Part shown: positions 1,900 to 62,252 of the stretch, in pieces
Position numbering within the stretch: the first letter of the stretch is position 1
Layout: each line of letters opens with the position of its first letter
DNA from: Candidatus Nomurabacteria bacterium
GTDB lineage: Bacteria; Patescibacteriota; Minisyncoccia; Phycocordibacterales; UBA5272
DNA length: 64,000 bases
Assembly (NCBI GenBank): GCA_029288775.1
Contig: JARIGQ010000001.1
Location: forward strand, 29,044 to 93,043
Direction of reading: 5' to 3'
The notes under the pieces: model-generated
Databases searched by the model: none
The model's input: only the letters and a program-made list of their open reading frames with translations
Told to the model about the DNA's origin: nothing
Position numbers and translations under genes: made by a program

Positions 1900-4608
1900 A
1901 TGGATCAGACTCTAAAAACTCCTGAGGAAGAGATTGCTTATTTGCGTTCGCAAATTCAAAACAAAGTGGAAGCATCCAAAGGGTTCGAAGATCGTTTTAC
2001 CTCAGAAGATCATGCTCATGAAGTAGTTCGTGAGTATAAGCAAGTACCCCTTGAAAAAGCAGTTGCTCCGCAGCAGATGGTTACTGCCGGGGAAAAGCAG
2101 CGGCTTTTGGAATGGCTGACACCCAGAGAAACGGATGAACAGGTAAAAATGCTTGCGCAGGTTATGGCAGAAAAGGGCCTTAAAAATGCTTTTAGTATGA
2201 TGGAGTCGCTTAATTATCCGGAAGTTGAGGACGATTTCGAGCGTTACTTGGTGCAATACCTCATTTCTGGTCATGAAGTTAAAAACAATCTTTCCAAGGA
2301 AGAATGGAAGGCGCTCCATATGAAGCTTTTTGAAGTGGTATTACCCGACGTTCAGGATCAAGGAAAGGGAGCCAAGGAAATGATGGCGCTTATGGAGCAA
2401 TGGTATGCCTCTATGCAGGCACTTGCTCCAGAGCCCACCAACAAGGACAAGAATTACTATTCATTGGAACTTGCAGTGGCTAATGGTACAACCACGGCGG
2501 TTTTTTATTGTGCGGTACATATTGACTATGCTTCGCTTTTTGAAAAAGTGGTGCTTGGTATTTTCCCAACCGCTCAAGTTCGCGAGCAAAAGGAGGATTA
2601 TAATATTTTTACCAAGCACGCTATTACTACGTGTGCGTACGCCTCCGCAAGCACGCATCCAACACTCCCACTTAAAACCTATACCAACATGGAGGGGGAT
2701 CCGATGTCGCTTATTATTGCTTCTTTCACTAAGATAGCGCGGGAAAATGAAGGCCTTGCGCTCCAGCTTCTTATTCGTCCTTCGGGGGATATGTTTGCTA
2801 AGAGGTATGGAGAAATGTTGGAGGATTTGCGAAAAGGGGAGACGCTCAAGCGGGTTATTGAAAAGCAGGATAACTTGAAAGAGTCATTCCGTATTCTCGG
2901 ATCAATGTTTAGTAGTAAATCTGCTGAACAATTAGCTAAAGAAAAAGAGAAGAAACAAACGTTTGTGGACGAAACAGCAATGAAGCATGTACAGGACAAA
3001 CTTTCACGTACTATTGTAGAAACCAATATTCGTATTATTGCTTCGGCAGAAACATTACCTCGTGCACAAGCTATTCGTTCGGAACTTGAGGCTTCATTTG
3101 CCCAATTTGCAGAAGTAAATGGAAACAGCGTTAAATGGGTAGAAGTAGAAGGGCGTAAGCAGAAAGCCATGCTTCACCGTTATTCGTATCGCTTGTGGAA
3201 TGATGATGAAAGTTATCCGCTTAATATAGCCGAGCTTGCATCGCTATTTCATTTTCCAACCCAAACCAAAGATACGGCAAATGTACGCGAACAAACGGCG
3301 ACTCAAGCAGCTGCTCCATTGGACATGCCTTCAGAAGGGGTGGTATTGGGAGTAAATAGATTCCGCGGTCAAGAAACTATGATTCACATGTCGCGAGAGG
3401 ATCGGATGCGTCATTTGTATGTGATAGGGCAGACAGGTACAGGTAAGACCTCCATTTTGAAGAATCTTATTATTCAGGATATTAAAAATGGTGATGGGTG
3501 CTGTTTCATTGATCCGCACGGGTCCGATATTATGGATATTTTGGCGTCCATTCCTCCGGAGCGCTCGCAAGATGTTATATATTTTGATCCAGGGAATACC
3601 GCTCGTCCCATGGGTCTTAATATGCTCGAATATGATCGGAATTATCCTGAACAGAAAACATTCGTTGTAAATGAGCTTTTGGGTATTTTCAATAAGCTCT
3701 TCGATATGAAGACATCCGGAGGTCCAGGGTTTGAACAGTACTTTAGAAACGCAACTATGCTCGTTATGGAGCATCCGGAGTCGGGGAATACGCTTCTTGA
3801 AATTGCTCGTATCTTTTCTGATAAGGACTTTAGAGATTATAAGCTTTCGAAGACCAAGAATCCGCTCCTGCTTCAATTTTGGCAAAATGCGGAAAAGACT
3901 ACAGGAGAACAGGGGCTTCAGAACTGGACCCAGTATGTTAATTCCAAATTCGATGTCTTTCTTTCAAATGACATTATGCGTCCGATTATTGCCCAGGAGA
4001 AGAGTGCGTTTAATATCCGTGACATTATGGATGGACGCAAGATTTTCCTTGTGAATCTTTCCAAAGGACGCCTAGGAGACATCAATGCTTCACTTATCGG
4101 TCTTATTTTGGTCGGTAAGTTCTTACAAGCCGCCCTTTCTCGCGTGGACACCACGGAACGCCCTGATTTCTATCTGTATATCGACGAATTTCAAAACATT
4201 ACCACGCCATCCATTTCAGCTATTCTCTCTGAAGCACGCAAGTATCGTCTTAGTCTTAACTTGGCTCATCAATTCATCGCTCAGCTTCCTGAAGACACCA
4301 AGGGAGCGGTATTTGGCAACGTTGGTTCAATGGCATTCTTTCGTGTCGGACCTGATGATGCTCAATACTTGGAGCCGCAGCTTTCACCAACATTTACTGC
4401 AAGTGACCTTATGAAAATCCAGAATTATCATGCCTATCTTAAAGTACTGGTGAATGGTGAACCGAAAAAGCCATTTGACATTGTAACGCTTCCACCAGAA
4501 AAGGGTGATGCAACACGTATCGAGCCGCTTAAGGAATTAAGCTATCTTACCTATGGTCGACCAAAAGAAGAAGTAGAAGCTGAGATTTTGAAGAAGTATC
4601 AACTTTAA
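1900..4608 (+). CDS. TraD/VirD4 (type IV coupling protein)-like P-loop ATPase with a large uncharacterised N-terminal domain; no TM anchor
   Basis: Walker A GQTGTGKTS, DPHG, Walker B YLYIDEFQN, and an ARKYRLSLNLAHQF TraG-D_C-like motif in the C-terminal half. The N-terminal ~450 aa are soluble and unrecognised. Confidence 0.8.
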   Translation: MDQTLKTPEEEIAYLRSQIQNKVEASKGFEDRFTSEDHAHEVVREYKQVPLEKAVAPQQMVTAGEKQRLLEWLTPRETDEQVKMLAQVMAEKGLKNAFSMMESLNYPEVEDDFERYLVQYLISGHEVKNNLSKEEWKALHMKLFEVVLPDVQDQGKGAKEMMALMEQWYASMQALAPEPTNKDKNYYSLELAVANGTTTAVFYCAVHIDYASLFEKVVLGIFPTAQVREQKEDYNIFTKHAITTCAYASASTHPTLPLKTYTNMEGDPMSLIIASFTKIARENEGLALQLLIRPSGDMFAKRYGEMLEDLRKGETLKRVIEKQDNLKESFRILGSMFSSKSAEQLAKEKEKKQTFVDETAMKHVQDKLSRTIVETNIRIIASAETLPRAQAIRSELEASFAQFAEVNGNSVKWVEVEGRKQKAMLHRYSYRLWNDDESYPLNIAELASLFHFPTQTKDTANVREQTATQAAAPLDMPSEGVVLGVNRFRGQETMIHMSREDRMRHLYVIGQTGTGKTSILKNLIIQDIKNGDGCCFIDPHGSDIMDILASIPPERSQDVIYFDPGNTARPMGLNMLEYDRNYPEQKTFVVNELLGIFNKLFDMKTSGGPGFEQYFRNATMLVMEHPESGNTLLEIARIFSDKDFRDYKLSKTKNPLLLQFWQNAEKTTGEQGLQNWTQYVNSKFDVFLSNDIMRPIIAQEKSAFNIRDIMDGRKIFLVNLSKGRLGDINASLIGLILVGKFLQAALSRVDTTERPDFYLYIDEFQNITTPSISAILSEARKYRLSLNLAHQFIAQLPEDTKGAVFGNVGSMAFFRVGPDDAQYLEPQLSPTFTASDLMKIQNYHAYLKVLVNGEPKKPFDIVTLPPEKGDATRIEPLKELSYLTYGRPKEEVEAEILKKYQL

Positions 4609-19989: not shown

Positions 19990-20630
19990 TATGAGCACTG
20001 TTAATGATGAAGAACACGAAAATTACTAGCTAAAAACCGCAGGCAAGTGACGTTTCGTTACGCGCCCGCCGGTAAGGCGGATTTTCTTTTCTAAAAATTG
20101 TTACAGGGGAGGTTCGTTGACAATAGAATCCCGTGCACAACACGCGCAACAATACTGTTATCCAGTAGTAGTAATATTCACTGGGGTCTAGCGGAGTTTG
20201 TAGTACGGGGAACATGAAAGATAATCAATGCACAAGTAGCTTGTAAACCTGCTTGTGCAGCACGCACATAACAATGGAGCGGTCCGGAGTTATGTGGTAG
20301 TTATGTTTCCTAATAGGAACATAAGAGCATACGGTGGATGCCTAGGCTCTAACAAGCGATGAAAGACGTGATCAGGCGGCGATACGCTTCGGGGAGGTGC
20401 CTAATAACCTTCGATCCGGAGATTTCTGAATGGGGAAACCTCATACGAGTAATGTTGTATGGTCTTAGAGAGCATTCTCAAGACGCGCACCCAGGGAAGT
20501 GAAACATCTCAGTACCTGGAGGAAAAGAAAACAAAAGTTATTCTGCAAGTAGCGGCGAGCGAAAACAGAGAAGCCCAAACCAGCACACCACTTTGCTTTC
20601 AATTGATATCGTTCATGTATGTTTATAAGG

Positions 20631-20987
20631 GGAAAAAAGTTCTTTGCCCGCCTACCAAGGCGTGCACATATCCGATTCATCGGATATGGCGGGTCTCAAT
20701 TAGGGAAGCAGCCATGAGGTGAGCCTCTGTGAGACCGAATGAGATACCAGAGGTTGACGTACGCTTGTTGGTGACGTTGACCGGAGCGCCCGAAAGCGCA
20801 AGCTAACGGGAACAACGCACACGAAATCTCTCGTGTGCGTTGACAATGCCGTAAGGCTTCAAGGTGCTGACAAAAATGCCTTACGGAAGCTGGCCAGGCT
20901 GTGAACGATCGCATCGGCTTGGTTGGAAGGTGAGAGGCCGCAGGAACCCCCGCTCTTTAAAGTTTTGCCGATTATAAATCGGCTCTC
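20631..20987 (+). other. Structured insertion of about 357 nt in 23S domain I, closed by a roughly 50-bp imperfect inverted repeat (20581-20630 with 20988-21048); IVS-like
   Basis: Flanks CAGCACACCACTTTGC...ATGTATGTTTATAAGG and CCTTATAAACATACAT...GCAAAGTGGTGTGCTGG are reverse complements. No counterpart in E. coli 23S helices 9-10. Confidence 0.6.
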
Positions 20988-21251
20988 CTTATAAACATAC
21001 ATGAACGAATACGATATCAATTGAATTGAAGGCAAAGTGGTGTGCTGGGGTAGTAAGACAGAAACGTAGATTTCTAGAAGAGTTACAAAAGGTAAATATA
21101 GACTAAGTTGTTGGAAAGCAACGCCACAGAAAGTGATAGCCTTGTAGTCGAAATATTTATCTCTCTTTTGTTTCTGATCTTGAGTAGTTCGAGACACGAA
21201 TAGCTCGGATGAATCAGCCGGAACTAACCGGTAAGGCTAAATATTGTTAGA

Positions 21252-21297
<46 letters not shown>

Positions 21298-22772
21298 GGA
21301 AGGGGAGTGAAATAGAACTGAAACCGTATGTTTACAAAGAGTAGAAGAGGTATTTATACCTCGACTGCGTGCCTATTGAAGAATGAGCCAACGAGTTGTA
21401 GGTTACTGCAGGCTAAGTGGTATAAAGTCACGGAGCCATAGCGAAAGCAAGTGTTAATAGCGCGAACCAATTGTAGTAGCTTACAGACCCGAAGCCGGAT
21501 GAGCTTACCATGAGCAGGGTGAAGCAGTGCGAAAGCACTGTGGAGGCCCGAACCAGTAGGTTGTACGACTCCTTTGGATGACTTGTGGTAAGGAGTGAAA
21601 AGCTAATCGAATTCGGTAATAGCTGGTTCTCTCCGAAATAGTTTTTGGACTAGCGTCATGTGTTCCCTTTGGGGGTAGAGCACTGGAAGGTTTTGACTAG
21701 TAGAAATACGGCAACACCTATCAAACTCCGAATACCAAAGGTTAAAAACATGGCAGTAAGACCACGGGGGCGAAGCTCCGTCGGTCAAAAGGGAAACAGC
21801 CCAGATCTCAAGTTAAGGTCCCTAAGTATAGATTAAGTGTATAGCGAGGAGGTGGAGTTTCATTGACAATGAGGATGTTGGCTTAGAAGCAGCCATCATT
21901 GAAAGAAAGCGTAACAGCTCACCCATCGAGAGACTCTGCGCCGTAAATGATCGGGACTAAAATCTATCACCGAAACTGAGGGCTTCCTATTTATAGGGAG
22001 CGGTAGGAGAGTGTTCCACTCTGCGCTGAAGCGGAAGGGGTAACCCACCGTGGAGCGTGTGGAAGTACGAATGTTGGCACAAGTAACCGCAAGGAAGGTG
22101 AGATCCCTTCCCGCCGAAAGAATAAGGTTTCCTTTGCAATGATTGTCAGCGAAGGGTTAGTCGGGCCTAAGGAGATGGCAAACGCCGGATCCGATGGACA
22201 TAAGGTTAATATTCCTTAACTTGGTAGTAATGTGATGGGATGACGGGGTGTAGTATGTAAAGCGTCTTATTGGATTGACGTTTATTGTGTAAGTGGCTTG
22301 TGTAGGGAAATCCGCACGAGTATACCGCAAGCACCGTATGAAGGTGAGGGGCAACCCGAGCCAATTTTACAAAGCACGCCTCCGAGAAAAGTCTCTACAT
22401 TCTGTGAATACAGAACGTCTTCTTGTGCCTTTTACTAGGTACGAGCTTGCTTGTATCTAGATCATCTAGGTACAAGAAGATGCTTAAGTTACTATTAATC
22501 CGTACCGCAAACCGACACAGGTATTCGAGTCGAGTAGACTAAGGCGAACGAGTGATATCTCCCTAAGGAACTAGGCAAAAAAGCGATCGTAAGTTAGCGA
22601 TAAGATCTGCCCATAGCAATATGGGCCGCAGCGAAAGTTTCCCTAGCGACTGTTTACCAAAAACACAGCTTCCTGCGAACACGTAAGTGGATGTATAGGA
22701 GGTGACGCCTGACCAATGCGGGAAGGTCAAATATCGGCGGTGCTTCGGTGCTGGATGATATAAGCCCCCGTC

Positions 22773-22804
<32 letters not shown>

Positions 22805-23018
22805 TCTGATCATATCTATGATGTGGTCAGAACGGACTAGGACGGTTATAGGGAATTTGGTTTAAATAAAGTAAAAACAGTCTAATTGTGTACGCTTCAT
22901 AAAGCTACCTGTTGCATCGAAATATGCATTCAGTCCAATGTGATTAACGAGAGACCAACGTCACACATCTGACCATTAGGTTGAAGATGAAGATAGAGTC
23001 CAACTTGAGGAATAGTTG
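22805..23018 (+). other. Group-I-type intron in 23S at the E. coli U1917 site (214 nt)
   Basis: Interrupts the universal GGUCCUAAGGU|AGCGAAAUUCC. 5' exon ends in U and the insert ends in G. P7-like R/S elements GGACUAG and AAGAUAGAGUCC. P9 hairpin CAACU-tgaggaau-AGUUG before the terminal G. P1/IGS pairing was not found. Confidence 0.55.
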
Positions 23019-23588
23019 AGCGAAATTCCTTGTCTGGTAAGTTCAGACGTGCACGAATGGCGTAACGACTGGGGAACTGTCTCAGGGAGTAGCTCGGTGA
23101 AAATACAGTGGGGGTGAAGATGCCCCCTAGCTGCAGATAGACGAAAAGACCCCGTGAGCTTTACTCTAGCTTGGTATTGCAAGTGTTCAATTACTGCGTA
23201 GTGTAGTGGTGAGAGGTTGAAGGTATGATTTCGGTTGTACTGGACTCGTCGATGAAACAGCCATCTGTAATTGGGCACTTGCTAACGTGAACGGAAAAAA
23301 CGTTCGCAGACAGTATCTGGTGGGGAGTTTAACTGGGGCGGTTTCCTCCCAAAAGGTAACGGAGGAGTATATTAAGGTCATCTAGGCGCGAATGGAAACC
23401 GTGCCGATAGCGCAAGGGCATAAGATGGCTTGACTGTGAGACGGGCATGTCGAGCAGACGCGAAAGCGGGTCCTAGTGAACCTACTCTTGGCTTTAGACG
23501 CCGGAGCAGATTAACGGATAGAAGCTACCACGGGGATAACAGGCTAGTTGTGCCTAAGAGTTCATATCGACGGCACAGTTCGGCACCT

Positions 23589-23942
23589 TAACTTTAATCG
23601 GGGTGCGTCAGGAGCAATCCTGTAGCAACACATGTACAATCGTCAAATAAATAATATGTACACAAGAAATCTTGGCTTATAACGGTGAAACCCTTATGCA
23701 TGAACACCATAAGGGCAATACCGTGGGAAGTTTATATGTAAGAAAGCGATCACTCCAATTGTATTGGAGAGCTGCACACCTCAAAATGTGATTACATGTA
23801 TAACCTCGTAGAGACTTGTCACGCATGTGACGGAGTTGTGGTTCAAAGAAGATAAACCATAGCTAATACGCCAACGCCGCCTTTGATCGGGCGGATGAAG
23901 ATATAGTCCGATCCTTCCAGTAATGGAAGACAAATACGACAG
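23589..23942 (+). other. Group I intron in the 23S peptidyl-transferase region near E. coli 2500 (354 nt)
   Basis: Interrupts GGCACCU|CGAUGUCGG. IGS GGGUGC (23601-23606) pairs with exon GCACCU, with U.G at the splice site. S element AAGAUAUAGUCC is an exact consensus match. R-like AGAGACUUG. P9 hairpin CUUCCA-guaa-UGGAAG. Terminal G. Confidence 0.7.
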
Positions 23943-24088
23943 CGATGTCGGCTCATCTTATCCTGGTGGTGGAGAAGCTACCAAGGGTTTGGCTGTTCGC
24001 CAATTAAAAAGATACGTGAGCTGGGTTCAAACCGTCGTGAGACAGGTTGGTTTCCTATCTTCTGCAGCCGTTCGAATATTGAGAAGAT

Positions 24089-24119
<31 letters not shown>

Positions 24120-24474
24120 TGACCTCTGGTGTGTGGGCTCTAGCGCCAGCTGGACCGCCCAGTAGCTATGTCGGGAATGGATAACCTCTGAAAGCATCTA
24201 AGAGGGAAGCCAACTTCAAGATAAGTATTCGTTGAGGGTCGTAAGAGATGATTACGTTGATAGGATCTAAGTGTACGCACAGTAATGTGTTTAGCTGAGG
24301 ATTACTAATTACCCGAATCCTATTAGGAAACATGATTATCACAAATAATCATCGTGCATCTTTCATGTGGTGAGAGGAGGTTGAAGAGTCTGATACCAGC
24401 AATGGTCGCTTACAATTTGGCTTCCTCTCACCACGTGAAGATTTGGTTCTTTCATGTTGTGAACGATATATGAT

Positions 24475-24650
24475 GGGGATGTAGCTCAGTTGGTAGAGCG
24501 TTTCCCTGGGGGTTGGGTGTCAACGCCCGACTTGTCTCCCAGCTAGTTGCCGAGTACAAAAGGCTTAGGCAAAAGGACTGCCGCCGACGAGGTGGAGGAA
24601 GGGGGAGAGCAGGGGGAAGGTCGCAGGTTCAAATCCTGCCATCTCCACCA
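24475..24650 (+). tRNA. tRNA-like gene (probable tRNA-Pro, anticodon GGG) interrupted by a roughly 100-nt insert in the anticodon loop; CCA encoded
   Basis: Acceptor GGGGATG pairs with CATCTCC. Canonical D-arm GCTC-AGTTGGTA-GAGC. T-arm GCAGG-TTCAAAT-CCTGC. Anticodon stem TTTCC pairs with GGGAA only across about 101 nt (about 24512-24612). Confidence 0.45.
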
Positions 24651-36227: not shown

Positions 36228-36923
36228 ATGATAGATACTCGAAAATACATCTTTACGTTTGTACTTACTGTGGCTATCTTTGCTACTGCATTTTTCGCCT
36301 CTTCCTTTTTCTCAGAAAAGAAAGTACAAACCGTTAAACAAATTCAAGACAATATCGCTATCGACATCACTTCTTCTGAAACGCAGTTTGATCTCTTGAA
36401 AGAGGTGCCGTGCTCGGACATTAATGAAAGCATGCTCTCTCCTCAACTTTCAGAAATCGGGGACAGATTATCTCGAACGGAGACTGATCGTGGAGCAAAG
36501 GATGCAGATGTGGTGTATTTAAAGAAATACTACTCTCTTCTTGAGGTGAAGGATTATTTGCTTTCCAGGCAGTTTGTAGCGAAGTGTGGCCAAACCAAGA
36601 AGCCGGTTTCTATTATTTATTTCTATTCTAATACGGGAGATTGTCCAGATTGTGAACGTGAAGGATATGTATTAACTCGCCTCAAGCAAGAGTATCCAGA
36701 TCTCCATGTATATTCTTTTGATTATAATCTTGATCTCTCGGTGGTAGATTCGATGAAGCAGATTTACAATATTCCTTCTGCTTTGCCTGCTCTTGTTATC
36801 AATGACAAAGCAACTACCGGTTTCAAATCTCTTGAGGAGCTTGACGCGCTTCTCCCTGATAGTCTCAAAGCGGCAACTTCTACATCTGTTACGGACGCAA
36901 CAACTACCAAAAAGACTAAATAG
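36228..36923 (+). CDS. Hypothetical membrane-anchored protein with a CPDC (thioredoxin-like CxxC) motif
   Basis: N-terminal TM helix. YFYSNTGDCPDCEREG motif. Confidence 0.5.
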   Translation: MIDTRKYIFTFVLTVAIFATAFFASSFFSEKKVQTVKQIQDNIAIDITSSETQFDLLKEVPCSDINESMLSPQLSEIGDRLSRTETDRGAKDADVVYLKKYYSLLEVKDYLLSRQFVAKCGQTKKPVSIIYFYSNTGDCPDCEREGYVLTRLKQEYPDLHVYSFDYNLDLSVVDSMKQIYNIPSALPALVINDKATTGFKSLEELDALLPDSLKAATSTSVTDATTTKKTK

Positions 36924-36938
36924 TCTTTCTTACAATCT

Positions 36939-38204
36939 ATGATAGAGCAAATTCTTTCAGCGCTCATGTATCCATTCCTTTTTCTTTCGATTTTTTTCGA
37001 AGTGCTTTTATTGGTTTCTTTTTTTGAAAACAAAAAGAAGATCGATGAGGAAGAGGAGGAATACCCGCTTACTCATTTTCCTACAGTAACCGTTGCGGTA
37101 CCGTGTTGGAATGAAGAAAGAACGCTTGCTGCCACACTCGATTCTTTGCTTGCATTGGAGTATCCAAAAGACAAGCTTTCCATTCTTGTAGTAGATGATG
37201 GCAGTCGTGATGCTACCCTTGCCATTGCTCAGAAATATGAAGCTCAGTATCCGGGCATTGTGTATGCACTTCATAAAGAAAATGGAGGAAAACATACTGC
37301 GGTAAATATGGCGCTTGATCGTTCCACTTCTGATCTTTTTGGTTGCTTGGATGCTGATTCATTTGTAGCTTCGCATACCCTTAAGAATATAGTTACGTAC
37401 TTTGAACGAGATCCGACGATTATGGCTGTAACTCCTTGTATACATATTAAGCATCCGACAACTTTTATCCAGCGCATGCAGGCCATTGAATACCTTGTCG
37501 GAGTATTCACTCGCAAAATGTTCGGCTCGCTTGATGCGATACAAGTAACACCTGGTCCATTTTCTATTTTTCGCAAAGAAGTGTTTCAGAAAATTGGTAA
37601 GTATCATAAGGCACATAATACGGAAGACTTTGAAATTACCTTGCGCATGCATAAGGCTCATTTGAGAATCGCTAACTCTCATAAGGCGCTTGTATATACG
37701 GTTGGTCCTGCAACAGCGAAAGGCTTTTTCTACCAGCGACTTAGGTGGGCTCGAGGATTCCTTGAAAATGCAATCGATTACCGTGAACTTTTTTTCAAAA
37801 AGGAATATGGTAACTTCGGCATGTTTACGCTCCCTATGGCATTTATGTTCGTCTTTTATGGTTTGTATGCTTCTATTTTTGCCATCTATTCGGGAATGAG
37901 GGCGTGGGGAAACACTTTTGATCGGTGGGCAACTGTTGGAATTCATCCCCGCATGCCACAATTTGATCTTTTTTATGTAAATACAAATTTTATGTCATTT
38001 ATTGTGATGTTTATGTTTACCATGCTCCTGCTGGTAATTTATATCTCCAATACCCTTACCGATGATCGGCAGCAGTTTTATCGTAACTTTCCCATATTTT
38101 TTATTCTTTATCCTTTTTTTGTTCCCATCTTTTTGGGTAAGGCTGTATTTGATACGCTGTTCAAACAGAAAAACCTGTGGGTGCTTCAGGACACCAAGAA
38201 ATAG
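36939..38204 (+). CDS. Processive family-2 glycosyltransferase (cellulose/chitin/PNAG-synthase-like)
   Basis: DDGS and DAD motifs, QRLRWARG (QxxRW), and C-terminal TM helices. Confidence 0.8.
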   Translation: MIEQILSALMYPFLFLSIFFEVLLLVSFFENKKKIDEEEEEYPLTHFPTVTVAVPCWNEERTLAATLDSLLALEYPKDKLSILVVDDGSRDATLAIAQKYEAQYPGIVYALHKENGGKHTAVNMALDRSTSDLFGCLDADSFVASHTLKNIVTYFERDPTIMAVTPCIHIKHPTTFIQRMQAIEYLVGVFTRKMFGSLDAIQVTPGPFSIFRKEVFQKIGKYHKAHNTEDFEITLRMHKAHLRIANSHKALVYTVGPATAKGFFYQRLRWARGFLENAIDYRELFFKKEYGNFGMFTLPMAFMFVFYGLYASIFAIYSGMRAWGNTFDRWATVGIHPRMPQFDLFYVNTNFMSFIVMFMFTMLLLVIYISNTLTDDRQQFYRNFPIFFILYPFFVPIFLGKAVFDTLFKQKNLWVLQDTKK

Positions 38205-38235: not shown

Positions 38236-39045
38236 ATGAACGGGCATTTTCACCCCATAACTAAGGCTATCGACAAGGTTGCGCGTATTTTTACCGAGAT
38301 TGGATTTGATGTTGTTGACGGCCCAGAAATTGAAAGCGAGTGGTACTGTTTTGATGCGCTTAATTTTCCTCGCAATCACCCAGCGCGAGACATGCAAGAT
38401 ACTTTTCATATCAAAGCAGAAACATTTGATCGCCCAAAAACAGAAAGCGAACAAAAATCTATGGAACGATTTGGAACTTTTAACTACGTGTTGCGAACAC
38501 ATACTTCTGGTGTCCAAGTTCGTACCATCGAAAAATGGATTAAAGAAAGGAGAGAATTTCCAATTGCAGTGGTGGTGCCTGGCCAAGTGTTTCGTAACGA
38601 AGCAACGGATGCTCGCCATGAAGCGCAGTTTTATCAAGTAGAAGGATTGATGGTTGGAAGGGATATAACACTTGCCCACCTCAAGGGCGTACTTGAACAT
38701 TATTTCTCCAAGTTTTTGGAAAAGGATATCAGAGTACGTTTCCGATCTTCTTTCTTTCCTTTTACAGAACCATCAGTGGAAGTCGATATGGAATGTTTCA
38801 AATGTGAAGGTAAGGGAGTTGTGGAGGGTGTACAGTGTTCGGTTTGTTCAGGTTCGGGGTGGATTGAGATTATGGGTGCGGGAATGGTACATCCTAATGT
38901 CCTTCAAAATGCAGGCCTTAATCCGCGTGAGTATCAAGGCTTTGCGTTTGGGGGAGGGCTTGATCGTCTTGTGATGCTCCAAACTGGTATTGATGATATA
39001 CGCCTGCTTTATAATGGAGACCTTCGGTTGGTACATCAATTCTAA
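38236..39045 (+). CDS. pheS: Phenylalanine--tRNA ligase alpha subunit (short form)
   Basis: Class II aaRS motifs (FPFTEPS, GAGMVHPNVL, GFAFGGGLDR). Confidence 0.9.
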   Translation: MNGHFHPITKAIDKVARIFTEIGFDVVDGPEIESEWYCFDALNFPRNHPARDMQDTFHIKAETFDRPKTESEQKSMERFGTFNYVLRTHTSGVQVRTIEKWIKERREFPIAVVVPGQVFRNEATDARHEAQFYQVEGLMVGRDITLAHLKGVLEHYFSKFLEKDIRVRFRSSFFPFTEPSVEVDMECFKCEGKGVVEGVQCSVCSGSGWIEIMGAGMVHPNVLQNAGLNPREYQGFAFGGGLDRLVMLQTGIDDIRLLYNGDLRLVHQF

Positions 39046-39048
39046 GAT

Positions 39049-39840
39049 ATGAACAAAAGTTATTTAGTTATCCTGAGTCTTTCTATCCTCGCTCTTATAG
39101 CGGTTGGGGTATATGTGTATGAGGGTCGCATGATACAAACTTCTCCTGCTGTCTCGGAAGCGACAGCATCAAGTACAGCTCAAGGAGTCCGTGTACAAGA
39201 GGATACGCCTGCATATACCATCGATATTACCTACCCTGCATTTCCTCAGGAGCTACATGGTGCATCAAAAGCAAATGAAGCCATAAAGAATAATCTCGAT
39301 CTTCGACTTGAACAGTTTAAGAAGGAAGCCAAGGAAAGTTTCGAAGCCCCGACTGATTTACCCGCTAGTGTGAAAAGTACAATGGGTGGCAGTCCTACAA
39401 CCGAATATGAAACCGATAGGTATATTTCTTTGTATTTCGGGGGCAATTGGTATATGCGAGGAGCTGCTCATGGTATGAATACGATTGATACCTACGTCTT
39501 CGATAAAAAGCTGGAGAAAGTTGTTGATATTACTGACATGTTTACACCTGGAAGTGGTTATTTGCAATTTCTTTCCACCTACGCTCGCCAGGATTTAGAA
39601 GCACAATCCAAAAAGGGGGATTTAGGACTTACCTATAACGAAAACATGCTTAAAGAAGGAACTGAAGGAACATTTGATAATTTTCGTCTTGCGCTTCCCA
39701 CTAAGGATGGGCTCGTGATTTATTTTACGGAATATCAAGTCGCTCCGTATGCTGCCGGTCCGCAACAGGTTGTAATACCATATGAAAAGTTAAAGCCGTA
39801 TATTAATCCTGAGGGAGCGCTTGCTGACTATCTTAAATAA
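39049..39840 (+). CDS. Membrane-anchored DUF4163/DUF3298 (RsiV/PdaC-like) domain protein
   Basis: N-terminal TM helix. C-terminal YQVAPYAAG motif. Confidence 0.65.
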   Translation: MNKSYLVILSLSILALIAVGVYVYEGRMIQTSPAVSEATASSTAQGVRVQEDTPAYTIDITYPAFPQELHGASKANEAIKNNLDLRLEQFKKEAKESFEAPTDLPASVKSTMGGSPTTEYETDRYISLYFGGNWYMRGAAHGMNTIDTYVFDKKLEKVVDITDMFTPGSGYLQFLSTYARQDLEAQSKKGDLGLTYNENMLKEGTEGTFDNFRLALPTKDGLVIYFTEYQVAPYAAGPQQVVIPYEKLKPYINPEGALADYLK

Positions 39841-39842
39841 GT

Positions 39843-42185
39843 ATGAAATTTTCATTGAATTGGCTTCAAGAGTACAGTAAAGAACCACTTCCAAATGTGG
39901 ATAGTCTTTCGGAAATGATAACGCTTAATGCCTTCGAGATTGAAGGTATGGAAAAGCTTGCTCAGGATATGGTGCTTGATATTAAAGTATTGCCTAATCG
40001 TGCTCATGACGCTCTCGGACATCGAGGTATGGCGCGTGATATATGTGCTTTGGTAGGGAATACTTTTCACGATACTCAGGAATATTATGAAGGGGAAGGG
40101 GATACTTCTTTAGGTGAACCAAAGGTCATTGCAGCTTCTGAAGAATGTACTCGTTTTATGAGTGTACGTATTGAAGGAATAAAAGTAGAAGAATCACCGG
40201 TATGGCTTAAGGAGAAATTAAACGCCATTGGTCAGAAGAGTATTAATTCAATTGTTGATATCACCAATTTTGTTCAGTTTGCTATTAACAAGCCAATGCA
40301 TGCCTATGACGCAAGTTTGATTGCAGGTAATGCGCTCTATGCAAGGAAAGCAAAAGATGGTGAGAAGCTTATCACGCTTGATGATAAAGAACTTAGTTTG
40401 GATAGCGGTACTTTGGTAATTGCTGATGAAGAAAAGGCATTAGGGCTTGCCGGTATAAAAGGAGGCAAGTTTTCGGGGATTACCTCCGAGACGACGTCTG
40501 TGCTTTTGGAATCAGCGAATTTCAACTCCACCCTTATTAGAAAGACTTCGCAAAAGTATGGTATTCGCACGGATGCTTCCAAGCGTTTTGAAAATGAACT
40601 GGCAGATGAGTTGGTAGAAGACGGGCTCCGTCTAACAATTGCCCTTATCAAGAAACTTAACCCTGAAGCTCGCGTGAGTGCTATTGTAGACCATTGGACG
40701 CATCAAAGTTGGCCCTACGTTGTCTCTGTGTCTGTAGAGGAAATCAACAAGCATCTCGGCACTTCCTACGAAGAAAGTGACATTAAAAAAGTTTTTGAAC
40801 ATTTAGGATTTGGCGTGCGAAGTGCGACAACTCGCGAAATTATTGAAGAACAAGTAAAGAAAACAGAAGGAGCTCTCTACCAAAATCCTTCCAGCATGAG
40901 AACTGATGCGCCACATCTTTTTTCCTGTTCTTCGCTTATAAGTTTTCTTTTTGCTGGAGTATGGCAACCAAGTCTCTCTATTGATAAATATGTGTATGCT
41001 TCTCCTCTTAATAAGATTGATGCAAAGTGGGGGGATTTGGTATTTTCCAACACAGGGGAGGGAAAGATCCGCTATGAATCAGTGCAGTTTTTGCCTGGCA
41101 CTACCGTGGAGCAAGGTGTTGACCATGTGGGATTATATTTAGGGGACAACAAAGTGCTTCACATTTCCCATAACACAAATAAGGTTGTCACCCAAACCTT
41201 TGATGAAGCCGCAGACTTCACTGATAAACTTTTGTTTGCGCGACTTGTAGATGTTGAAGCTCCAAGATTATTTGTGAACGTTCCTCCAGAACGTCTGGAT
41301 ATTCGCATCAAGGAAGATCTTATTGAGGAAGTAGCTCGTATGAAAGGATTGTCTTCTATTCCTTCAGTGCTTCCGAATATTGCTCGCACGGGTATTCCTC
41401 ATAAGCGTTTATATTATGAGACCAAAATAAAAAATATTCTTTCTAAGGGGGGCTTTTCGGAAATCATGACGTACTCCTTTGGGGATGAAGGTGAGGTAGA
41501 AATCATGAAAGGCTCTGCTATGGACAAAGAAAAACTTCGCACCAAGCTTGCGCCTGGCCTCTGGAAGGCATTTCAGATGAATATGCTTAATGCGCCGCTT
41601 CTTCAGATTGATACGGTGAAGATGTACGAATTCGGAAACATCTTCACTCCTACTAATGAGCGTCGTCATTTTGCACTTATCATCGATGACGGTAAAAAGA
41701 AATCATCTTTTTCTGAAGAGGTTGATCTTGTGCTTTCTGAAATTAAACGCGAGCTTGGCGTGTCCCAGCTTGAATGCCAAACAGCAAGCACCAAGCCATA
41801 CTGTGTCGAGCTTGATTTTGATACACTGATCGAATCACTTCCTGAGCCTACGACGTATGAACCGCTTGCACAAGATCTATCACCTATTGCTTACAAACCA
41901 GTCTCTCCTTATCCGTTTATTGTTCGTGATATTGCTGTATGGGTACCTGCTTCTATCACATGGGAAACTATCCGTACTCTCGCTTTACAAATCAGTTCTC
42001 CTCTTATTGCTCGCTTGTATTGTTTTGATACCTTCGAAAAAGAGATAGAGGGGGTTCGGAAAACATCCTTTGCTTTCCGTTTTGTACTCCAATCGCATGA
42101 GCGCACGCTTACGGATGCTGAGGCCAATGAAGTGGCGGATAAGATGTACGCACTCCTTAAGGAAAAAGGGTATGAGATTCGCTAA
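39843..42185 (+). CDS. pheT: Phenylalanine--tRNA ligase beta subunit with an NlpC/P60-like domain inserted in the B5 domain
   Basis: B3/4 domain (LDIKVLPNRAHDALGHRGMARDI). B5 domain (EEINKHLG...EHLGFGV ... VNVPPERLDIRIKEDLIEEVAR) split by about 140 aa carrying SCSS, GDLVF and HVGLYLGDNKVLH (Cys/His/His, 12 residues between the two His). Confidence 0.85.
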   Translation: MKFSLNWLQEYSKEPLPNVDSLSEMITLNAFEIEGMEKLAQDMVLDIKVLPNRAHDALGHRGMARDICALVGNTFHDTQEYYEGEGDTSLGEPKVIAASEECTRFMSVRIEGIKVEESPVWLKEKLNAIGQKSINSIVDITNFVQFAINKPMHAYDASLIAGNALYARKAKDGEKLITLDDKELSLDSGTLVIADEEKALGLAGIKGGKFSGITSETTSVLLESANFNSTLIRKTSQKYGIRTDASKRFENELADELVEDGLRLTIALIKKLNPEARVSAIVDHWTHQSWPYVVSVSVEEINKHLGTSYEESDIKKVFEHLGFGVRSATTREIIEEQVKKTEGALYQNPSSMRTDAPHLFSCSSLISFLFAGVWQPSLSIDKYVYASPLNKIDAKWGDLVFSNTGEGKIRYESVQFLPGTTVEQGVDHVGLYLGDNKVLHISHNTNKVVTQTFDEAADFTDKLLFARLVDVEAPRLFVNVPPERLDIRIKEDLIEEVARMKGLSSIPSVLPNIARTGIPHKRLYYETKIKNILSKGGFSEIMTYSFGDEGEVEIMKGSAMDKEKLRTKLAPGLWKAFQMNMLNAPLLQIDTVKMYEFGNIFTPTNERRHFALIIDDGKKKSSFSEEVDLVLSEIKRELGVSQLECQTASTKPYCVELDFDTLIESLPEPTTYEPLAQDLSPIAYKPVSPYPFIVRDIAVWVPASITWETIRTLALQISSPLIARLYCFDTFEKEIEGVRKTSFAFRFVLQSHERTLTDAEANEVADKMYALLKEKGYEIR

Positions 42186-42186
42186 G

Positions 42187-42678
42187 ATGAAACTCGTCGT
42201 TCCCTATTATTCACAATTCGTAGATATTCAGGATCCTTTTTGGATGTTACGTGCTTGCGGAGCGGTATGTCTTAAGATGGTTGCGGAATTTCAGGGAAAA
42301 GAAGTTCCCGATTTAATAATTCTATGCAATGAGGCAAAAGAGCGCGGAGGATACGATATGGTAAATGGATGGGTACATGATTATTTGGTATCTAAAGCTG
42401 AAGAGTTGGGATTGAAAGCATATCGCAAGGAAGGTCTCGATACTCTTGATGAAGTTAAAGCCTTTTTAGAAAAAGGACCGGTAATTGTTTCTGTGGAGAA
42501 ACGTGTGCTTGAGCAAAAGCGCTTTCACATGATTGTGATAACGGGTATTGAAGACGATATGGTTATCTACCACGAACCGGAATCAACTGATAAAGGGAGA
42601 GGGATGAACCGCGTGTGCACTGTGCAAGCATTTATGGACTATTGGCGCGGCAAAGCTATTTTTATCGACTCACCTTAG
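42187..42678 (+). CDS. Papain-like cysteine peptidase, C39-like (Peptidase_C39_2/BtrH-like)
   Basis: VVPYYSQ...ACGAVCLKMV Cys motif and downstream His (FHMIVITG). Its ATG lies 1 nt after the pheT stop (TAAGATG). Confidence 0.6.
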   Translation: MKLVVPYYSQFVDIQDPFWMLRACGAVCLKMVAEFQGKEVPDLIILCNEAKERGGYDMVNGWVHDYLVSKAEELGLKAYRKEGLDTLDEVKAFLEKGPVIVSVEKRVLEQKRFHMIVITGIEDDMVIYHEPESTDKGRGMNRVCTVQAFMDYWRGKAIFIDSP

Positions 42679-43424
42679 AATTGTTCTAGATGCGCTTTCC
42701 AGAGATCATGACGATCATCTATGTGTCTCTCATTGTCACTGCGGCATAGAGATTTCAGTAAAGGTGTATCTTTTATCCATTCCTTGCCATTCCAAAATTC
42801 CAGTGGTTCGACATTTGTTTTATAGAGGGCTTTTTCCGCATAGCAGGTACCGAAATAAAAATAGTGTTTGCCATTTTTTGAAAGTTCTCGTATATGATCC
42901 AGTGCAAGCCACATACCCATGGAAGATTTCGCGTATTCGTGAGCGTAAAAGGAAAACCAGTAATGACTCATGACTTCATCCTCTACCAGTAAAAGGTAAG
43001 CGACAGGTATTCCATCCTTAGCGTATTCGACAATTGAATTGATAAGGTTCATCGAGAGAATAAGTTCGAGACGTTCGCGTGGCATGACGCTTCCGTGAGC
43101 AAGGTTGAAGTATGAAAGGCAGAGGTTGAAGAATGTCTCATCGTGTAGAATATCTTCTACAGTACGAAGCTTTTTTTCAAACATGCCATCAAACATGCGT
43201 AAGACCCGACGGTTTTCACTTGTAGGCTCCCATTTCCTAATATCTGCTCGGGTTCCTCGCGCCATATAAAAAATATCTCGTATTCCTTTGGATCCAGAGT
43301 AGGGAAGAAAACCTCGCTCATAGATTTCATGAAGTTTGTCTCCGTGTTCGCGCTTAAGGTACAACGTATAGGCGAAGGAATACGTTTCGTATGAGTGGCC
43401 AAATTCAGAAGCAAATAACTGCAT
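42675..43424 (-). CDS. Arginyl/leucyl-tRNA--protein transferase-like (ATE/Bpt family) protein
   Basis: C-terminal HYFYFGTCYAEKALYK resembles the ATE_C YK motif. Family-level call only. Confidence 0.45.
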   Translation of the reverse strand: MQLFASEFGHSYETYSFAYTLYLKREHGDKLHEIYERGFLPYSGSKGIRDIFYMARGTRADIRKWEPTSENRRVLRMFDGMFEKKLRTVEDILHDETFFNLCLSYFNLAHGSVMPRERLELILSMNLINSIVEYAKDGIPVAYLLLVEDEVMSHYWFSFYAHEYAKSSMGMWLALDHIRELSKNGKHYFYFGTCYAEKALYKTNVEPLEFWNGKEWIKDTPLLKSLCRSDNERHIDDRHDLWKAHLEQF

Positions 43425-43427
43425 AGA

Positions 43428-44840
43428 TTAAGCGGGAAATTTTTCTTCCAGTGCTGAAATGGTTTCTGGAATGAATCCTCCCATACCTCCTGAACTTAAA
43501 ATAAGAATAACGTCATTATCTTGTGTGTAATTAACAAGATCTATTAATCCAGTAGCAGCATGTTCAAACGGGGTTACTTCGATACCAGAGGCACGCACGC
43601 GCTCTACAATTTCTTCAAGATTTAACTGCTCATGAGTTCCGCTTCCGTGCTCAGGGGGTTTATACATAAACACATGCTCTGCTCCCTTAAATACGGTATC
43701 GTACCAATGAAGTGCTGCACGGTTGCGCCAAGAAAATGTATGAGGTTCAAACACAACAACAAGCCGTCTACTTGGAAAATGAAGTTCCATTGCTTCGATT
43801 GCAGAACGTGCCTTATCAACGGATGATCCAAATCCTTCATAGACGGGAATGGAAGTTTTTTCACTCTTCTTATCCAGTCGACGCACAATTCCTTTGAAGG
43901 TCTGTATACCTTTTGCAAGCTCTTCCGGAGTGAGTTTTTGTGTTTCTAATAGAAGAGCCGCAACTCCAATAATATTTTGTATATTGTGCTTACCTAGAAG
44001 AGTGGTAGAAAGGCGGACAATAACTTCATCATTTTTTACTAAATCAAAGGTTGATTCTCGGCCAAAAGTAATGTTTGCTGCGTGATAGGTTCCTTGTTCC
44101 AGTCCGTACGAAATACTATCGTGAGTTATTTCTCCTAGTTTAGAGTGTACAGTCATATCATCCGTACAGAGGATAAGTTTTCCCTCTTGGGGGAGACCTT
44201 GAATAAGCTTCATGAAAGGGAAAAGATAGTCCTCGTGGGTTGGAAAGACATTTACATGATCATGAGCAAGCGCAGTGACAAGGAGATGTCTTGGATGGAG
44301 GAACATAAACTTAGAAGTAGTGTCCCAATTAGAAGAAGGATATTCGTCGCCTTCCATGATGAAATCATTTCCATTGCCTAGACGCGCATTGGTGGTAGGT
44401 GTAAGGGGAATTGCACCAATGAAATAACTTGGATCTTTCCCGGCTTGCTCGAGACACCAGGAAAGAAGTGATGTGCAGGTAGATTTGCCAAATGATCCAA
44501 CTACCACAGTATTTTCTTTGTGTTCCGAAAGGTGTTCAAGTACTTGTGGAAAAGAAAGGACTGGTTTTCCTGATTCTAAAGCAGCTTTTACTTCTTCATT
44601 TTCTTCAGGAATAAGTTTTGCATGTTTGCCGATGACGATATAGTCCACATCATCTGGAATATTATTTGGAGAAAACGGAGTAGTGCACGGGATTTTATGT
44701 TCCACTAAATAATCAGAAATAGGAGGGTAGAAGCCTTCATCGCTTCCTGTTACGGTTTCTCCTTTGTCGACAAGTAACTTGGCAACCGCGCTCATGCCGG
44801 CGCCGGAGACGCCGATAAAGTGATATTTCATACTTTTCAT
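43428..44840 (-). CDS. Mur ligase family protein (MurC/Mpl-type UDP-N-acetylmuramate ligase)
   Basis: N-terminal FIGVSGAGMS and a central GSFGKSTCTS P-loop. The start codon is ambiguous (44831, 44840 or 44843). Confidence 0.8.
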   Translation of the reverse strand: MKSMKYHFIGVSGAGMSAVAKLLVDKGETVTGSDEGFYPPISDYLVEHKIPCTTPFSPNNIPDDVDYIVIGKHAKLIPEENEEVKAALESGKPVLSFPQVLEHLSEHKENTVVVGSFGKSTCTSLLSWCLEQAGKDPSYFIGAIPLTPTTNARLGNGNDFIMEGDEYPSSNWDTTSKFMFLHPRHLLVTALAHDHVNVFPTHEDYLFPFMKLIQGLPQEGKLILCTDDMTVHSKLGEITHDSISYGLEQGTYHAANITFGRESTFDLVKNDEVIVRLSTTLLGKHNIQNIIGVAALLLETQKLTPEELAKGIQTFKGIVRRLDKKSEKTSIPVYEGFGSSVDKARSAIEAMELHFPSRRLVVVFEPHTFSWRNRAALHWYDTVFKGAEHVFMYKPPEHGSGTHEQLNLEEIVERVRASGIEVTPFEHAATGLIDLVNYTQDNDVILILSSGGMGGFIPETISALEEKFPA

Positions 44841-44904
44841 CATAGCAAAAATGGACAAGAAAAAAAGCAGCGCTTGCGCGCTGCCCAAAGCACCTTTCCC
44901 GCCC

Positions 44905-45774
44905 TTAATCGTTTACGACTACCGCCACGAGATTTCTCCGCTGTACTTCTCCGGCAACCAGTTGCCGCTTATTGGAGTACCAGACAGGTTCACCGTCCTT
45001 CATCTCGCTGTAGGTGCACATCGAGTCAAGGATAATGTTTTGTTCGGGTACACCGAAGCTTGTGAATTGTCGCCGGATGAGCTCTTTAGTGTCGAGCCAC
45101 CCAAGTGTGCGACCGTGACCGTCATCCTTGAAGCATTCCCGTCCCCAGGTTTCGGAGACATAGGTGACGAGACGGGAGTTATGAGGGTTCTCTTTGTCGA
45201 ACATCGAATGCTGGAAGTGCGGTCCAGGTGAGATGGAAAACCCAACCCACACACGCACATCTTTGAGATTCTGACCTTCGAATGCACACCGGCAGATGCT
45301 GTCGACGACGCTTTGGTAGCGTCGAGGAGCTTTTCCCCGTACCCGAGCCATGTCGATGATGCTGTTGCGTCCAGCGTGGGCAGCGACGATGATGTCTCCG
45401 CACTTGGCCACGACGAGTGCGCAGTCTGCTGCCGACATGGCATAGCCGCACGAAGCATCGAGATTAGTCACGCCGTCTGCGTCTGTACCGCGGTAGATGC
45501 GGAATTCTGCGCCCGGGCTGAAACTCATACACGGGATTTCTCCCGGCCATACAATCTCGGCATTCATCTTCGATGGGGATGGTGCAGCGAAAGCTTCCAA
45601 CTCTTCGCTAGCAATGGAAGCCAAAGCTTCGAAGATCGGAGTATGCGTTTTGTGTTGCTCCTTGCTTTCGTCGAAGCCACGAAAGGAGAAATCGCAACCA
45701 TGCTCACGCCCAAAAGCATGCACCGTGATTTCGCCTCCTAAAATCGGGAGCGAAAGTGTAGGTTCGATGGACAT
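44905..45774 (-). CDS. PgeF/YfiH (DUF152, laccase-domain) peptidoglycan-editing-factor-like protein
   Basis: ADCALVVAKCGDIIVAAHAGRNS matches the HAGWRG region. The start was set at MSIEPTL, which has an AGGAAG Shine-Dalgarno. Confidence 0.65.
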   Translation of the reverse strand: MSIEPTLSLPILGGEITVHAFGREHGCDFSFRGFDESKEQHKTHTPIFEALASIASEELEAFAAPSPSKMNAEIVWPGEIPCMSFSPGAEFRIYRGTDADGVTNLDASCGYAMSAADCALVVAKCGDIIVAAHAGRNSIIDMARVRGKAPRRYQSVVDSICRCAFEGQNLKDVRVWVGFSISPGPHFQHSMFDKENPHNSRLVTYVSETWGRECFKDDGHGRTLGWLDTKELIRRQFTSFGVPEQNIILDSMCTYSEMKDGEPVWYSNKRQLVAGEVQRRNLVAVVVND

Positions 45775-45920
45775 TACTGTCTTCCTAAAAGTTGAGTGTA
45801 CCTCTTTCGGATTGAAAGGGCTTCTACTACCAACACTACAATAGTAAAATAAGCTTGTCAATTAAGGCTTTTTGGAGCGCTTTTGCACTGGTATTTAGGG
45901 GGTAAAAATGGTATAATTAA

Positions 45921-61954: not shown

Positions 61955-62252
61955 TATATGTCTTTGTCTGTAAGCCGAATTCTGTTTTTGTGTAGACATG
62001 TATCTTGTCCCGCCATTGCTGTCGAGATCTAGCGACACTCCTTAGTATTGCTAATAAGGCACGGTCTTGCACACGCGTATGTATTTAGCCGTTTCAGCCG
62101 GACTGAACCGGATCGTTTCTGTTCGCAACACGGTGGTCACCCACGACGGGCGTTACCCGCTACGTTTCCACAGTGAAGTGGTGTGTGTTCGGACTTTCCT
62201 CACCGTTTCCGGCGCGTCTACCCAACAAAGAACTTTTTTAGTATACCATATA

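Follow-up and report, generated by a model that had tools for sequence, protein, structure and literature searches.

Aminoacyl-tRNA synthetases (aaRS) are known to acquire extra domains. For phenylalanyl-tRNA synthetase (PheRS), PMC3275996 gives the B5 domain of the beta subunit only a helix-turn-helix "DNA binding-like" character, and presents the monomeric enzyme, an alpha catalytic module joined to the B8 anticodon-binding domain, only for mitochondria. We analysed a 64,000-nt stretch of a Candidatus Nomurabacteria genome (contig JARIGQ010000001.1; "the window" is this whole stretch) and, within it, a plus-strand locus at 38236-42678 in which the PheRS genes pheS and pheT stand together with a DUF3298 gene, an NlpC/P60 domain embedded in PheT, and a C39-like cysteine peptidase gene. 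PheRS, the NlpC/P60 domain and the C39-like protein form a conserved module across Paceibacteria/Parcubacteria, including lineages in which PheRS is monomeric. The parts come from known families (pheT, C40 NlpC/P60, C39/C39_2 and DUF3298); their arrangement seems undescribed, and full-text searches on PheRS with NlpC/P60, on aaRS insertions in the candidate phyla radiation (CPR), on monomeric bacterial PheRS and on the B5 domain yielded no description of the module.

The locus is laid out as follows:

38236..39045, plus strand: pheS, PheRS alpha subunit; 269 aa, a short form without the N-terminal coiled coil (Pfam tRNA-synt_2d, 302.7 bits, 2.5e-90)
39049..39840, plus strand: membrane-anchored DUF3298/PdaC-N (RsiV-fold) gene; 263 aa, occupant of a variable pheS-pheT slot, outside the conserved module
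39843..42185, plus strand: pheT, PheRS beta subunit with inserted NlpC/P60 domain; 780 aa (TIGR00472 and Pfam)
40812..41270, plus strand: NlpC/P60 insert within pheT; PheT aa 324-476, in the B5 hairpin, an indel relative to insert-less relatives
42187..42678, plus strand: C39-like (Peptidase_C39_2) cysteine peptidase; 163 aa (Pfam)

An earlier reading made from the letters alone (the sequence-only reading) had described four contiguous genes with spacers of 3, 2 and 1 nt, and open reading frames (ORFs) and direct reads of the junctions agree with it: pheS meets the DUF3298 gene at TAAGATATG (3-nt spacer), the DUF3298 gene meets pheT at TAAGTATG (2-nt spacer), and pheT meets the C39-like gene at TAAGATG (1-nt spacer). 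The C39-like protein starts at the ATG at 42187, with the conserved MKL.VPYYSQ, where the ORF lister had put the ORF start at a TTG at 42070. All four window proteins have Pfam matches above curated cut-offs. We found no sigma-70-like promoter or intrinsic-terminator-like site on the plus strand between 36616 and 44617, which is compatible with a single long transcription unit. PheS also carries, at aa 183-208, a CxxC...CxxC knuckle (ECFKCEGKG...CSVCSGSG) with a weak DnaJ_CXXCXGXG match, possibly a zinc-binding insertion.

The window PheT scores as a bacterial beta subunit (TIGR00472 pheT_bact, 405.1 bits against a cut-off of 402.65) and contains B3_4, B5, CLM (B6/7) and FDX-ACB (B8) domains, all above their Pfam cut-offs and with B5 split into two stretches; the B2 (EMAP-like) domain is seemingly absent, the TIGR00472 match beginning at model position 157. 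What splits B5 is a clean indel of ~150 aa in its hairpin, placed between "LGF" and "V.VP.ERLD" by comparison with insert-less relatives, with NLPC_P60 (PF00877) matched at aa 358-455 (27.7 bits, cut-off 23). An AF2 model of the insert (pLDDT 86) had 40 Foldseek matches in the PDB at E<=1e-3, all 40 to NlpC/P60 folds or entries containing such a fold; the best were the P60 D,L-endopeptidases Acd24020, RipB, MepS/Spr, CwlO and LytE, together with the YkfC/dipeptidyl-peptidase VI (DPP-VI) class. The catalytic triad comprises Cys362 (40926-40928), His428 (41124-41126) and His440 (41160-41162), each codon checked, and does not vary among 49 insert-bearing PheT or across an alignment of 26 sequences. 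A double-glycine-type site considered in PheT, the "GA" before "YKNPSSMR" near the N-terminus of the insert, was rejected: these residues form part of the "G.PY..G" motif usual in NlpC/P60 domains, many sequences have G-K there, and its state bears no relation to the presence of the C39-like gene.

Using the insert as a phmmer query against 1.84 billion cluster representatives (50%-identity clusters) gave 217 matches at E<=0.001. Nearly all of the 150 matches listed are PheT of ~770-830 aa (or fragments), matched at about aa 330-490, or proteins of ~190-235 aa, and the insert's NlpC/P60 subfamily thus appears confined to PheRS contexts. The sole long non-PheT architecture noticed among these 150 is an 1183-aa protein, P0353, in which nine separate stretches match the insert at 29% identity.

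The C39-like protein matches both Peptidase_C39_2 (PF13529, 35.2 bits, cut-off 24) and Peptidase_C39 (PF03412, 24.0 bits, cut-off 22). Its catalytic positions are the oxyanion residue Gln10 (42214-42216), Cys24 (42256-42258), His114 (42526-42528) and the acidic Glu130/Glu132; an alignment of 25 sequences shows no variation at Gln10, Cys24, His114 or Glu132 and at least 90% conservation of Glu130, and the same residues are kept in a homologue only ~30% identical (locus L136). Searched as a profile against the PDB, the C39-like alignment returned nothing below E = 0.06. Structurally the protein has the C39 fold; its closest folds are double-glycine leader peptidases, and its weaker matches include CtaG, a protein with a BtrH N-terminal domain, and CcbD. 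The label "BtrH-like" given to it by the sequence-only reading finds no support: the window protein has no BtrH_N match at E<=0.01, and the L136 homologue reaches just E=0.11. Nor does it look like a bacteriocin-processing C39 enzyme of the PCAT/ComA type: it is a stand-alone protein of 163 aa, with no ABC transporter in the window neighbourhood or in related loci and no evident leader substrate. The family comprises 291 clusters, and among the 120 listed, identity to the window protein is 58-86%, against 52-74% for the listed PheT homologues.

No transmembrane (TM) segment is predicted in the window PheT, and neither a signal peptide nor a TM segment in the C39-like protein. Without an export signal or membrane segment, both are cytoplasmic rather than envelope proteins, and both the insert and the C39-like protein, with catalytic residues intact, are predicted peptidases. 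Of the "envelope-type" pair that had been proposed, the C39-like protein does not fit the description; the DUF3298 protein has one N-terminal TM segment.

We compared the locus with 147 related loci in total. Eighty species-level GTDB loci (L001-L080) were fetched with PheT, their ORFs called and then searched by BLASTP and HMM with the window proteins; a metagenome scan seeded by the C39-like alignment contributed 62 loci, with C39-like identity down to ~30%; and three members of a stand-alone NlpC/P60 family, sampled across its diversity, led to loci L143-L147. The PheT protein search returned many beta subunits of ~780 aa with PF00877 and close relatives of ~637 aa without it; the names carried by homologues place the source organism in Paceibacterota/Parcubacteria. 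Presence of the insert and of the C39-like gene could be tabulated for 49 loci with the insert (window included) and 27 without. In 26 GTDB loci and the window a C39-like gene is found downstream of pheT, and all of these are insert-bearing (27/49); the 27 insert-less loci contain none (raw Fisher p = 2e-7, the taxa not being independent). Profile-HMM searches of six-frame translations of all 80 GTDB loci revealed no further C39-like copies. The C39-seeded metagenome loci give the same answer from the other direction: wherever at least 1.5 kb of pheT was available upstream, it carries the insert (34/34), and this holds down to a C39-like identity of 30-40%. The association that the sequence-only reading had put forward as a check, C39-like family with PheT insert, is thus borne out, and it is a one-way dependency: the insert occurs without the C39-like gene, whereas no C39-like gene was seen without the NlpC/P60 module wherever flanking DNA sufficed. 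The distance from the pheT stop to the C39-like start, measured in 20 GTDB loci, is <=3 nt in 8, 64 nt in 1 and 0.3-0.8 kb in 11, several of the last holding another ORF in between.

In a neighbour-joining (NJ) tree of PheT computed after the insert columns had been dropped, insert-bearing and insert-less lineages are interleaved, for example the window, L001 and L022 versus L045, L046, L048 and L049; L043 versus L069 and L070; L009 versus L067; and L016 and L062 versus L063-L065 and L068. Over 100 bootstraps, Fitch parsimony requires 9-12 changes for the insert and 8-12 for the C39-like gene. The cleanest comparator is L045, among the closest insert-less relatives: it has neither insert nor C39-like gene, its pheT abuts an ATE-like gene, a GNAT gene occupies its pheS-pheT junction, and its downstream genes are the same as in the window (ATE-like, MurC-like and PgeF-like, on the minus strand; listed below).

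In some Parcubacteria a monomeric, mitochondrial-type PheRS replaces pheS/pheT. Locus L136 (3317-5558) encodes such a PheRS (tRNA-synt_2d and FDX-ACB, 368 aa), followed by a 194-aa protein, the C39-like protein and gyrB, with overlapping codons between PheRS and the 194-aa gene. The 194-aa protein aligns to window PheT aa 289-499, that is, the two B5 halves and the insert (E 6e-33). This stand-alone form comprises 68 clusters of 186-238 aa; stand-alone relatives score 39-65 bits for PF00877, and L143-L147 show the order monomeric PheRS, NlpC/P60, C39_2, gyrB, again with overlapping start and stop codons. The monomeric PheRS of L132, L136 and L143-L147 consists of tRNA-synt_2d and FDX-ACB in 368-389 aa, and among the papers we searched there was no account of a bacterial monomeric form. 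With the rest of the beta subunit discarded, the B5-NlpC/P60 piece and its C39-like neighbour are exactly what was kept. Because the partner is missing from every locus without the embedded domain, and because the B5-NlpC/P60 relic was retained, we conclude that the module is selected for a function of its own, and that the link between the NlpC/P60 domain and the C39-like protein is very probably functional.

The DUF3298 gene behaves differently. Its 263-aa product matches DUF3298 (63.8 bits, cut-off 24.1) and the PdaC N-terminal domain (35.8 bits, cut-off 29.1), and thus has the PF13739 and PF11738 architecture with a membrane anchor, a single TM segment within about aa 1-29. It falls far short of RsiV itself: the protein reaches 43.3 bits against a cut-off of 250 for the RsiV equivalog (NF052658) and 40 bits against 200 for the Rv3036c equivalog, and no sigma factor gene adjoins it. 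The gene sits in what we call slot A, the pheS-pheT junction. Sixty-nine GTDB loci hold both genes, with pheS kept upstream of pheT, and form the base for the slot counts: the two genes are adjacent (<=45 nt) in 33/69 and more than 300 nt apart in 32/69. DUF3298 is the most frequent passenger (12 ORFs in 10 loci, tandem in some), followed by a HIT-like 143-aa protein (7 ORFs in 7 loci), a four-helix-bundle protein resembling 23S-IVS proteins (6 ORFs in 6 loci) and a SET/AdoMetDC-like protein (3 ORFs in 3 loci); one-off occupants include an alpha/beta-hydrolase, GNAT, a RelE-type toxin-antitoxin pair, GIY-YIG/T5orf172, PAP2, CutA and small membrane proteins. Occupancy is independent of the insert (19 occupied and 19 adjacent among insert-bearing loci, 13 and 14 among insert-less ones). 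Across L001-L080 the junction is an insertion hotspot, and the junction between pheT and the C39-like gene takes extra genes too.

DUF3298 genes occupy slot A in seven insert-bearing GTDB loci besides the window and in three insert-less ones (L051, L060, L065); being present both with and without the insert, they are not tied to it. The gene is very probably an incidental passenger of a promiscuous, recombination-prone slot, with no specific tie to PheRS or to the insert. The sequence-only reading had wired three modules into PheRS and had named random variation of the accessory genes among relatives, or their occurrence without the insert, as grounds for abandoning the idea; for DUF3298 both were found. 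The NlpC/P60 and C39-like pairing survives, and the DUF3298 gene should not serve as an argument for envelope coupling.

Taken together, the best overall explanation in our view, held with about even confidence, is a DUF3298 passenger alongside a functional NlpC/P60-C39-like module carried on PheRS. In such a module a single cytoplasmic peptide or amide substrate would be handled by the two papain-fold enzymes in turn, the C39-like protein working on or after the NlpC/P60 step, and PheRS would serve through B5 as a structural scaffold and as a vehicle for stoichiometric co-expression. Because the insert has the fold of γ-D-glutamyl-diamino-acid (D,L) endopeptidases, our best guess for the substrate would be a γ-D-glutamyl (stem-peptide-type) bond, with the module taking part in the processing or salvage of peptidoglycan-type stem peptides. 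This specific substrate and mechanism, sequential action on stem peptides, we offer tentatively and with more doubt than belief.

Several observations weigh against this explanation. The C39-like gene is missing within 6 kb in 22/49 insert-bearing loci, although some of these have little downstream DNA and the gene could sit elsewhere; they include a deep clade (L026-L042, L054, L059) as well as L002, L011, L017 and L020, all with the triad intact. Conversely, L131 and L132 have a C39-like gene near a monomeric PheRS with no recognisable NlpC/P60 module, and in L087 the 1.6 kb available upstream of the C39-like gene is taken up by a gene for an S/T-rich surface protein and contains no pheT. 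Mirror-tree analysis (partial Mantel) of 49 non-redundant pairs gave a partial correlation between C39-like protein and insert, given the backbone, of 0.07 (p = 0.16), and in a matrix regression it is the C-terminal segment of PheT next to the C39-like gene (coefficient 0.81), and not the insert (0.10, p = 0.19), that the C39-like protein follows; there is therefore no sign of a co-adapted interface between the two. The locus is mosaic and the tree is a single-gene NJ tree, so the count of "independent" transitions is soft. Adjacency to murC, considered as part of the module, was rejected: in crown lineages murC comes after pheT whether or not the insert is present, and deep lineages run directly from the C39-like gene to gyrB; with murC outside the module, the link to peptidoglycan comes from fold similarity alone. 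The substrate and the order of action are guesses, and a generic muropeptide-salvage enzyme confined to PheRS would be unexpected.

Immediately upstream of the monomeric PheRS in L132 lies a 176-aa ORF (2514-3044) with a Cys...His pattern (GGTSCCGHVSW ... SHMGFCVSD), with no Pfam match and an hhalign probability of 0.1 to the NlpC/P60 insert; it could be unrelated or a highly diverged thiol hydrolase. Mosaicism is seen within pheT: L062 and L019 have foreign-type inserts between native flanks, and L098 and L140 switch affinity along the gene. In L062, L019, L024, L098 and L140 the lineage type of the insert (FDCSS or FSCSS motif) can differ from both flanks, and the N- and C-terminal halves of pheT can have different nearest relatives, which indicates frequent recombination inside a housekeeping gene. 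Matched types of insert and C39-like gene in such mosaics were looked for and are not supported, the foreign insert and the foreign C39-like gene of L062 coming from different sources.

This mosaicism bears on the neutral alternative, in which the insert and the C39-like gene are unrelated passengers of operon packing or hitch-hiking in a reduced genome, moved together by proximity. They are only ~0.9 kb apart, both junctions tolerate many passenger genes, recombination mosaics are evident, and C39-like divergence follows the adjacent PheT C-terminal segment. Given that mosaicism, linkage alone explains a perfect one-way association poorly: the insert and the C39-like gene are separate indels split by ~0.9 kb of retained, essential pheT, yet they are jointly absent in 27/27 insert-less loci, and other genes can intervene between pheT and the C39-like gene without its loss. 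Moreover, both keep invariant catalytic residues, with crown-group C39-like identity of 58-86% against 52-74% for PheT among the matches listed, and the pair was kept with overlapping codons after the rest of pheT was deleted. Operon packing, which the sequence-only reading had allowed for, accounts well for DUF3298 but fails on this joint absence, and we judge it improbable for the pair. A quite different alternative would tie the enzymes to the chemistry of PheRS itself: their Cys nucleophiles would capture phenylalanyl groups as thioesters, from aminoacyl-tRNA (aa-tRNA) or Phe-AMP, for non-ribosomal peptide or cell-wall transfer, or would perform papain-fold trans-editing or rescue, the editing variant being hydrolysis of mis-acylated or N-blocked Phe-tRNA. 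The seeming confinement of the NlpC/P60 subfamily to PheRS, translational coupling to PheRS in many loci, and acyl-transferring papain-fold relatives (CtaG, the protein with a BtrH N-terminal domain, CcbD) among the weaker structural matches of the C39-like protein all speak for it; so does survival of the triad through the switch to a monomeric PheRS without a B3/4 editing domain, a retention that an editing role would explain. We nevertheless consider it unlikely. Fem/MprF-type use of aa-tRNA had been suggested for this locus, but the four genes contain no FemAB, MprF/DUF2156 or Aat (Leu_Phe_trans) domain in Pfam or NCBIfam, and the nearby ATE_C/Acetyltransf_6-like gene is found also in the insert-less loci L045 and L068. 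The best structural matches are ordinary peptidases, with no domain or structural match in direct support; many close relatives do without both modules; and the DUF3298 protein, extracytoplasmic and sporadic, cannot belong to such a pathway. We know of no papain-fold enzyme that acts on aa-tRNA.

By analogy with C39 domains, which cut double-glycine leaders, the C39-like protein could be imagined as a protease devoted to processing or regulating PheT or the stand-alone B5-NlpC/P60 protein. Its closest folds are leader peptidases of this kind, it is co-translated with its putative substrate, and its one-way need for the insert is what such a protease would show; against this, the candidate "G-A" site shows no conservation of G-[GAS] and no correlation with the C39-like gene, and no co-evolution signal was detected, so we rate this reading a poor prospect. 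Least probable, and in our estimate very unlikely, is a selfish or conflict element, for instance an addiction or toxin/immunity-like pair that has settled in an essential gene. Its appeal lies in the patchy, interleaved distribution, in inserts swapped between lineages, and in the range of folds that structurally neighbour the C39-like protein, CdiA-CT toxins and papain-like toxin/immunity pairs being among them. Yet PADLOC defence models matched none of the C39-like, insert, DUF3298 and ATE-like proteins, mobility genes are lacking, the pair keeps the same place within a conserved housekeeping block even in deep lineages, and both partners resemble active enzymes rather than an enzyme and its inhibitor.

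That block, common to Paceibacteria and present in most of the 80 GTDB loci, reads rpsB-tsf-(131 aa)-(231 aa)-GT2-pheS-[slot A]-pheT-[slot B]-murC-...-gyrB. In the window the genes flanking the locus are:

36228..38204, plus strand: GT2 glycosyltransferase preceded by a 231-aa membrane protein; co-directional, upstream of pheS (GT2 Pfam matches), context only
42675-43424, minus strand: ATE_C/Acetyltransf_6-like transferase; convergent, outside the module (Pfam/NCBIfam)
43428-44888, minus strand: MurC/Mpl-like ligase paralog; convergent, outside the module (Pfam/NCBIfam)
44905-45861, minus strand: PgeF-like protein, a weak match; convergent, outside the module (Pfam/NCBIfam)

The convergent trio follows an insert-less, C39-less pheT in L045. 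Its ATE-like and MurC-like members recur in L001, L045, L068 and L085 independently of the insert, with the PgeF-like gene in L001, L045 and L085; most relatives have a canonical plus-strand murC at this position (the L006 protein scores 439 bits for TIGR01082). The window MurC/Mpl-like ligase is divergent, falling below both equivalog cut-offs, and the ATE_C/Acetyltransf_6 matches (arginyltransferase/Fem-fold) are weak. The trio could be an aa-tRNA-dependent unit for modification of peptidoglycan precursors.

Elsewhere in the window, the 23S rRNA match at 20311-24327 spans 4017 nt against a model of 2925 nt; the extra ~1.1 kb, an intervening sequence or intron, contains no ORF reaching 120 aa. 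Between 23S and 5S, Rfam matches a tRNA over 173 nt (24475-24647) where ARAGORN was negative; it is possibly intron-containing or otherwise interrupted. The window has no 16S rRNA, so its rRNA genes are possibly unlinked. The class A RNase P RNA (61955-62233, minus strand) is a reduced form that covers the whole 367-position model in 279 nt and scores barely over the gathering threshold (103.4 against 100).

We suggest that the PheRS-borne module makes non-canonical aaRS function testable on a concrete example from CPR bacteria, a group whose oddities of this kind are mostly dismissed as genome-reduction noise. Two of its components, the stand-alone B5-NlpC/P60 protein and the C39-like protein, are small, soluble and amenable to expression and assay.

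How the module departs from its relatives is clearest when the parts are set beside described systems. The insert shares its fold with P60 D,L-endopeptidases and the YkfC/DPP-VI class (Foldseek E ~1e-6 to 1e-3, TM ~0.6), and with P60 endopeptidases also the Cys-His-His triad, an N-terminal motif of the "G.PY..G...DCS" type and a PF00877 score above cut-off. Unlike them, it is lodged in the B5 hairpin of PheRS beta, or flanked by two B5 halves when stand-alone; it has no SH3b domain, LysM domain or signal peptide, is 15-24% identical to solved members, and its activity is predicted. The C39-like protein likewise differs from the C39 leader peptidase domains of PCAT1, ComA and LahT150 in standing alone, with neither an ABC transporter nor a recognisable leader substrate in the locus. 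In C39 domains and in stand-alone C39-like proteins (B. anthracis 3erv; YvpB-type Peptidase_C39_2) the usual residue is Asp, which is replaced here by Glu130/Glu132, and the genomic tie to PheRS and NlpC/P60 sets this family apart from known C39 systems. The DUF3298 protein resembles RsiV, PdaC-N and Rv3036c-type proteins in its DUF4163(PdaC-N) and DUF3298 domains and single N-terminal anchor; it differs from RsiV and Rv3036c in scoring far below the equivalog cut-offs, in having no sigV nearby, and in its incidental position.

Two further comparisons lie within PheRS itself. The Parcubacteria form of the synthetase shares the tRNA-synt_2d and FDX-ACB architecture of mitochondrial monomeric PheRS (PMC3275996), but it is bacterial, and downstream of it come a beta-subunit relic (B5 and NlpC/P60) and the C39-like gene. 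The B3/4 editing domain and its free relative CtdA (PMC12268091, PMC12449066) likewise present a hydrolase-type unit carried on PheRS beta or split from it, in fused and free forms. Here, by contrast, the unit has a papain-like fold, lies in B5, and comes with a second, dedicated enzyme, and nothing indicates that it acts on aa-tRNA.

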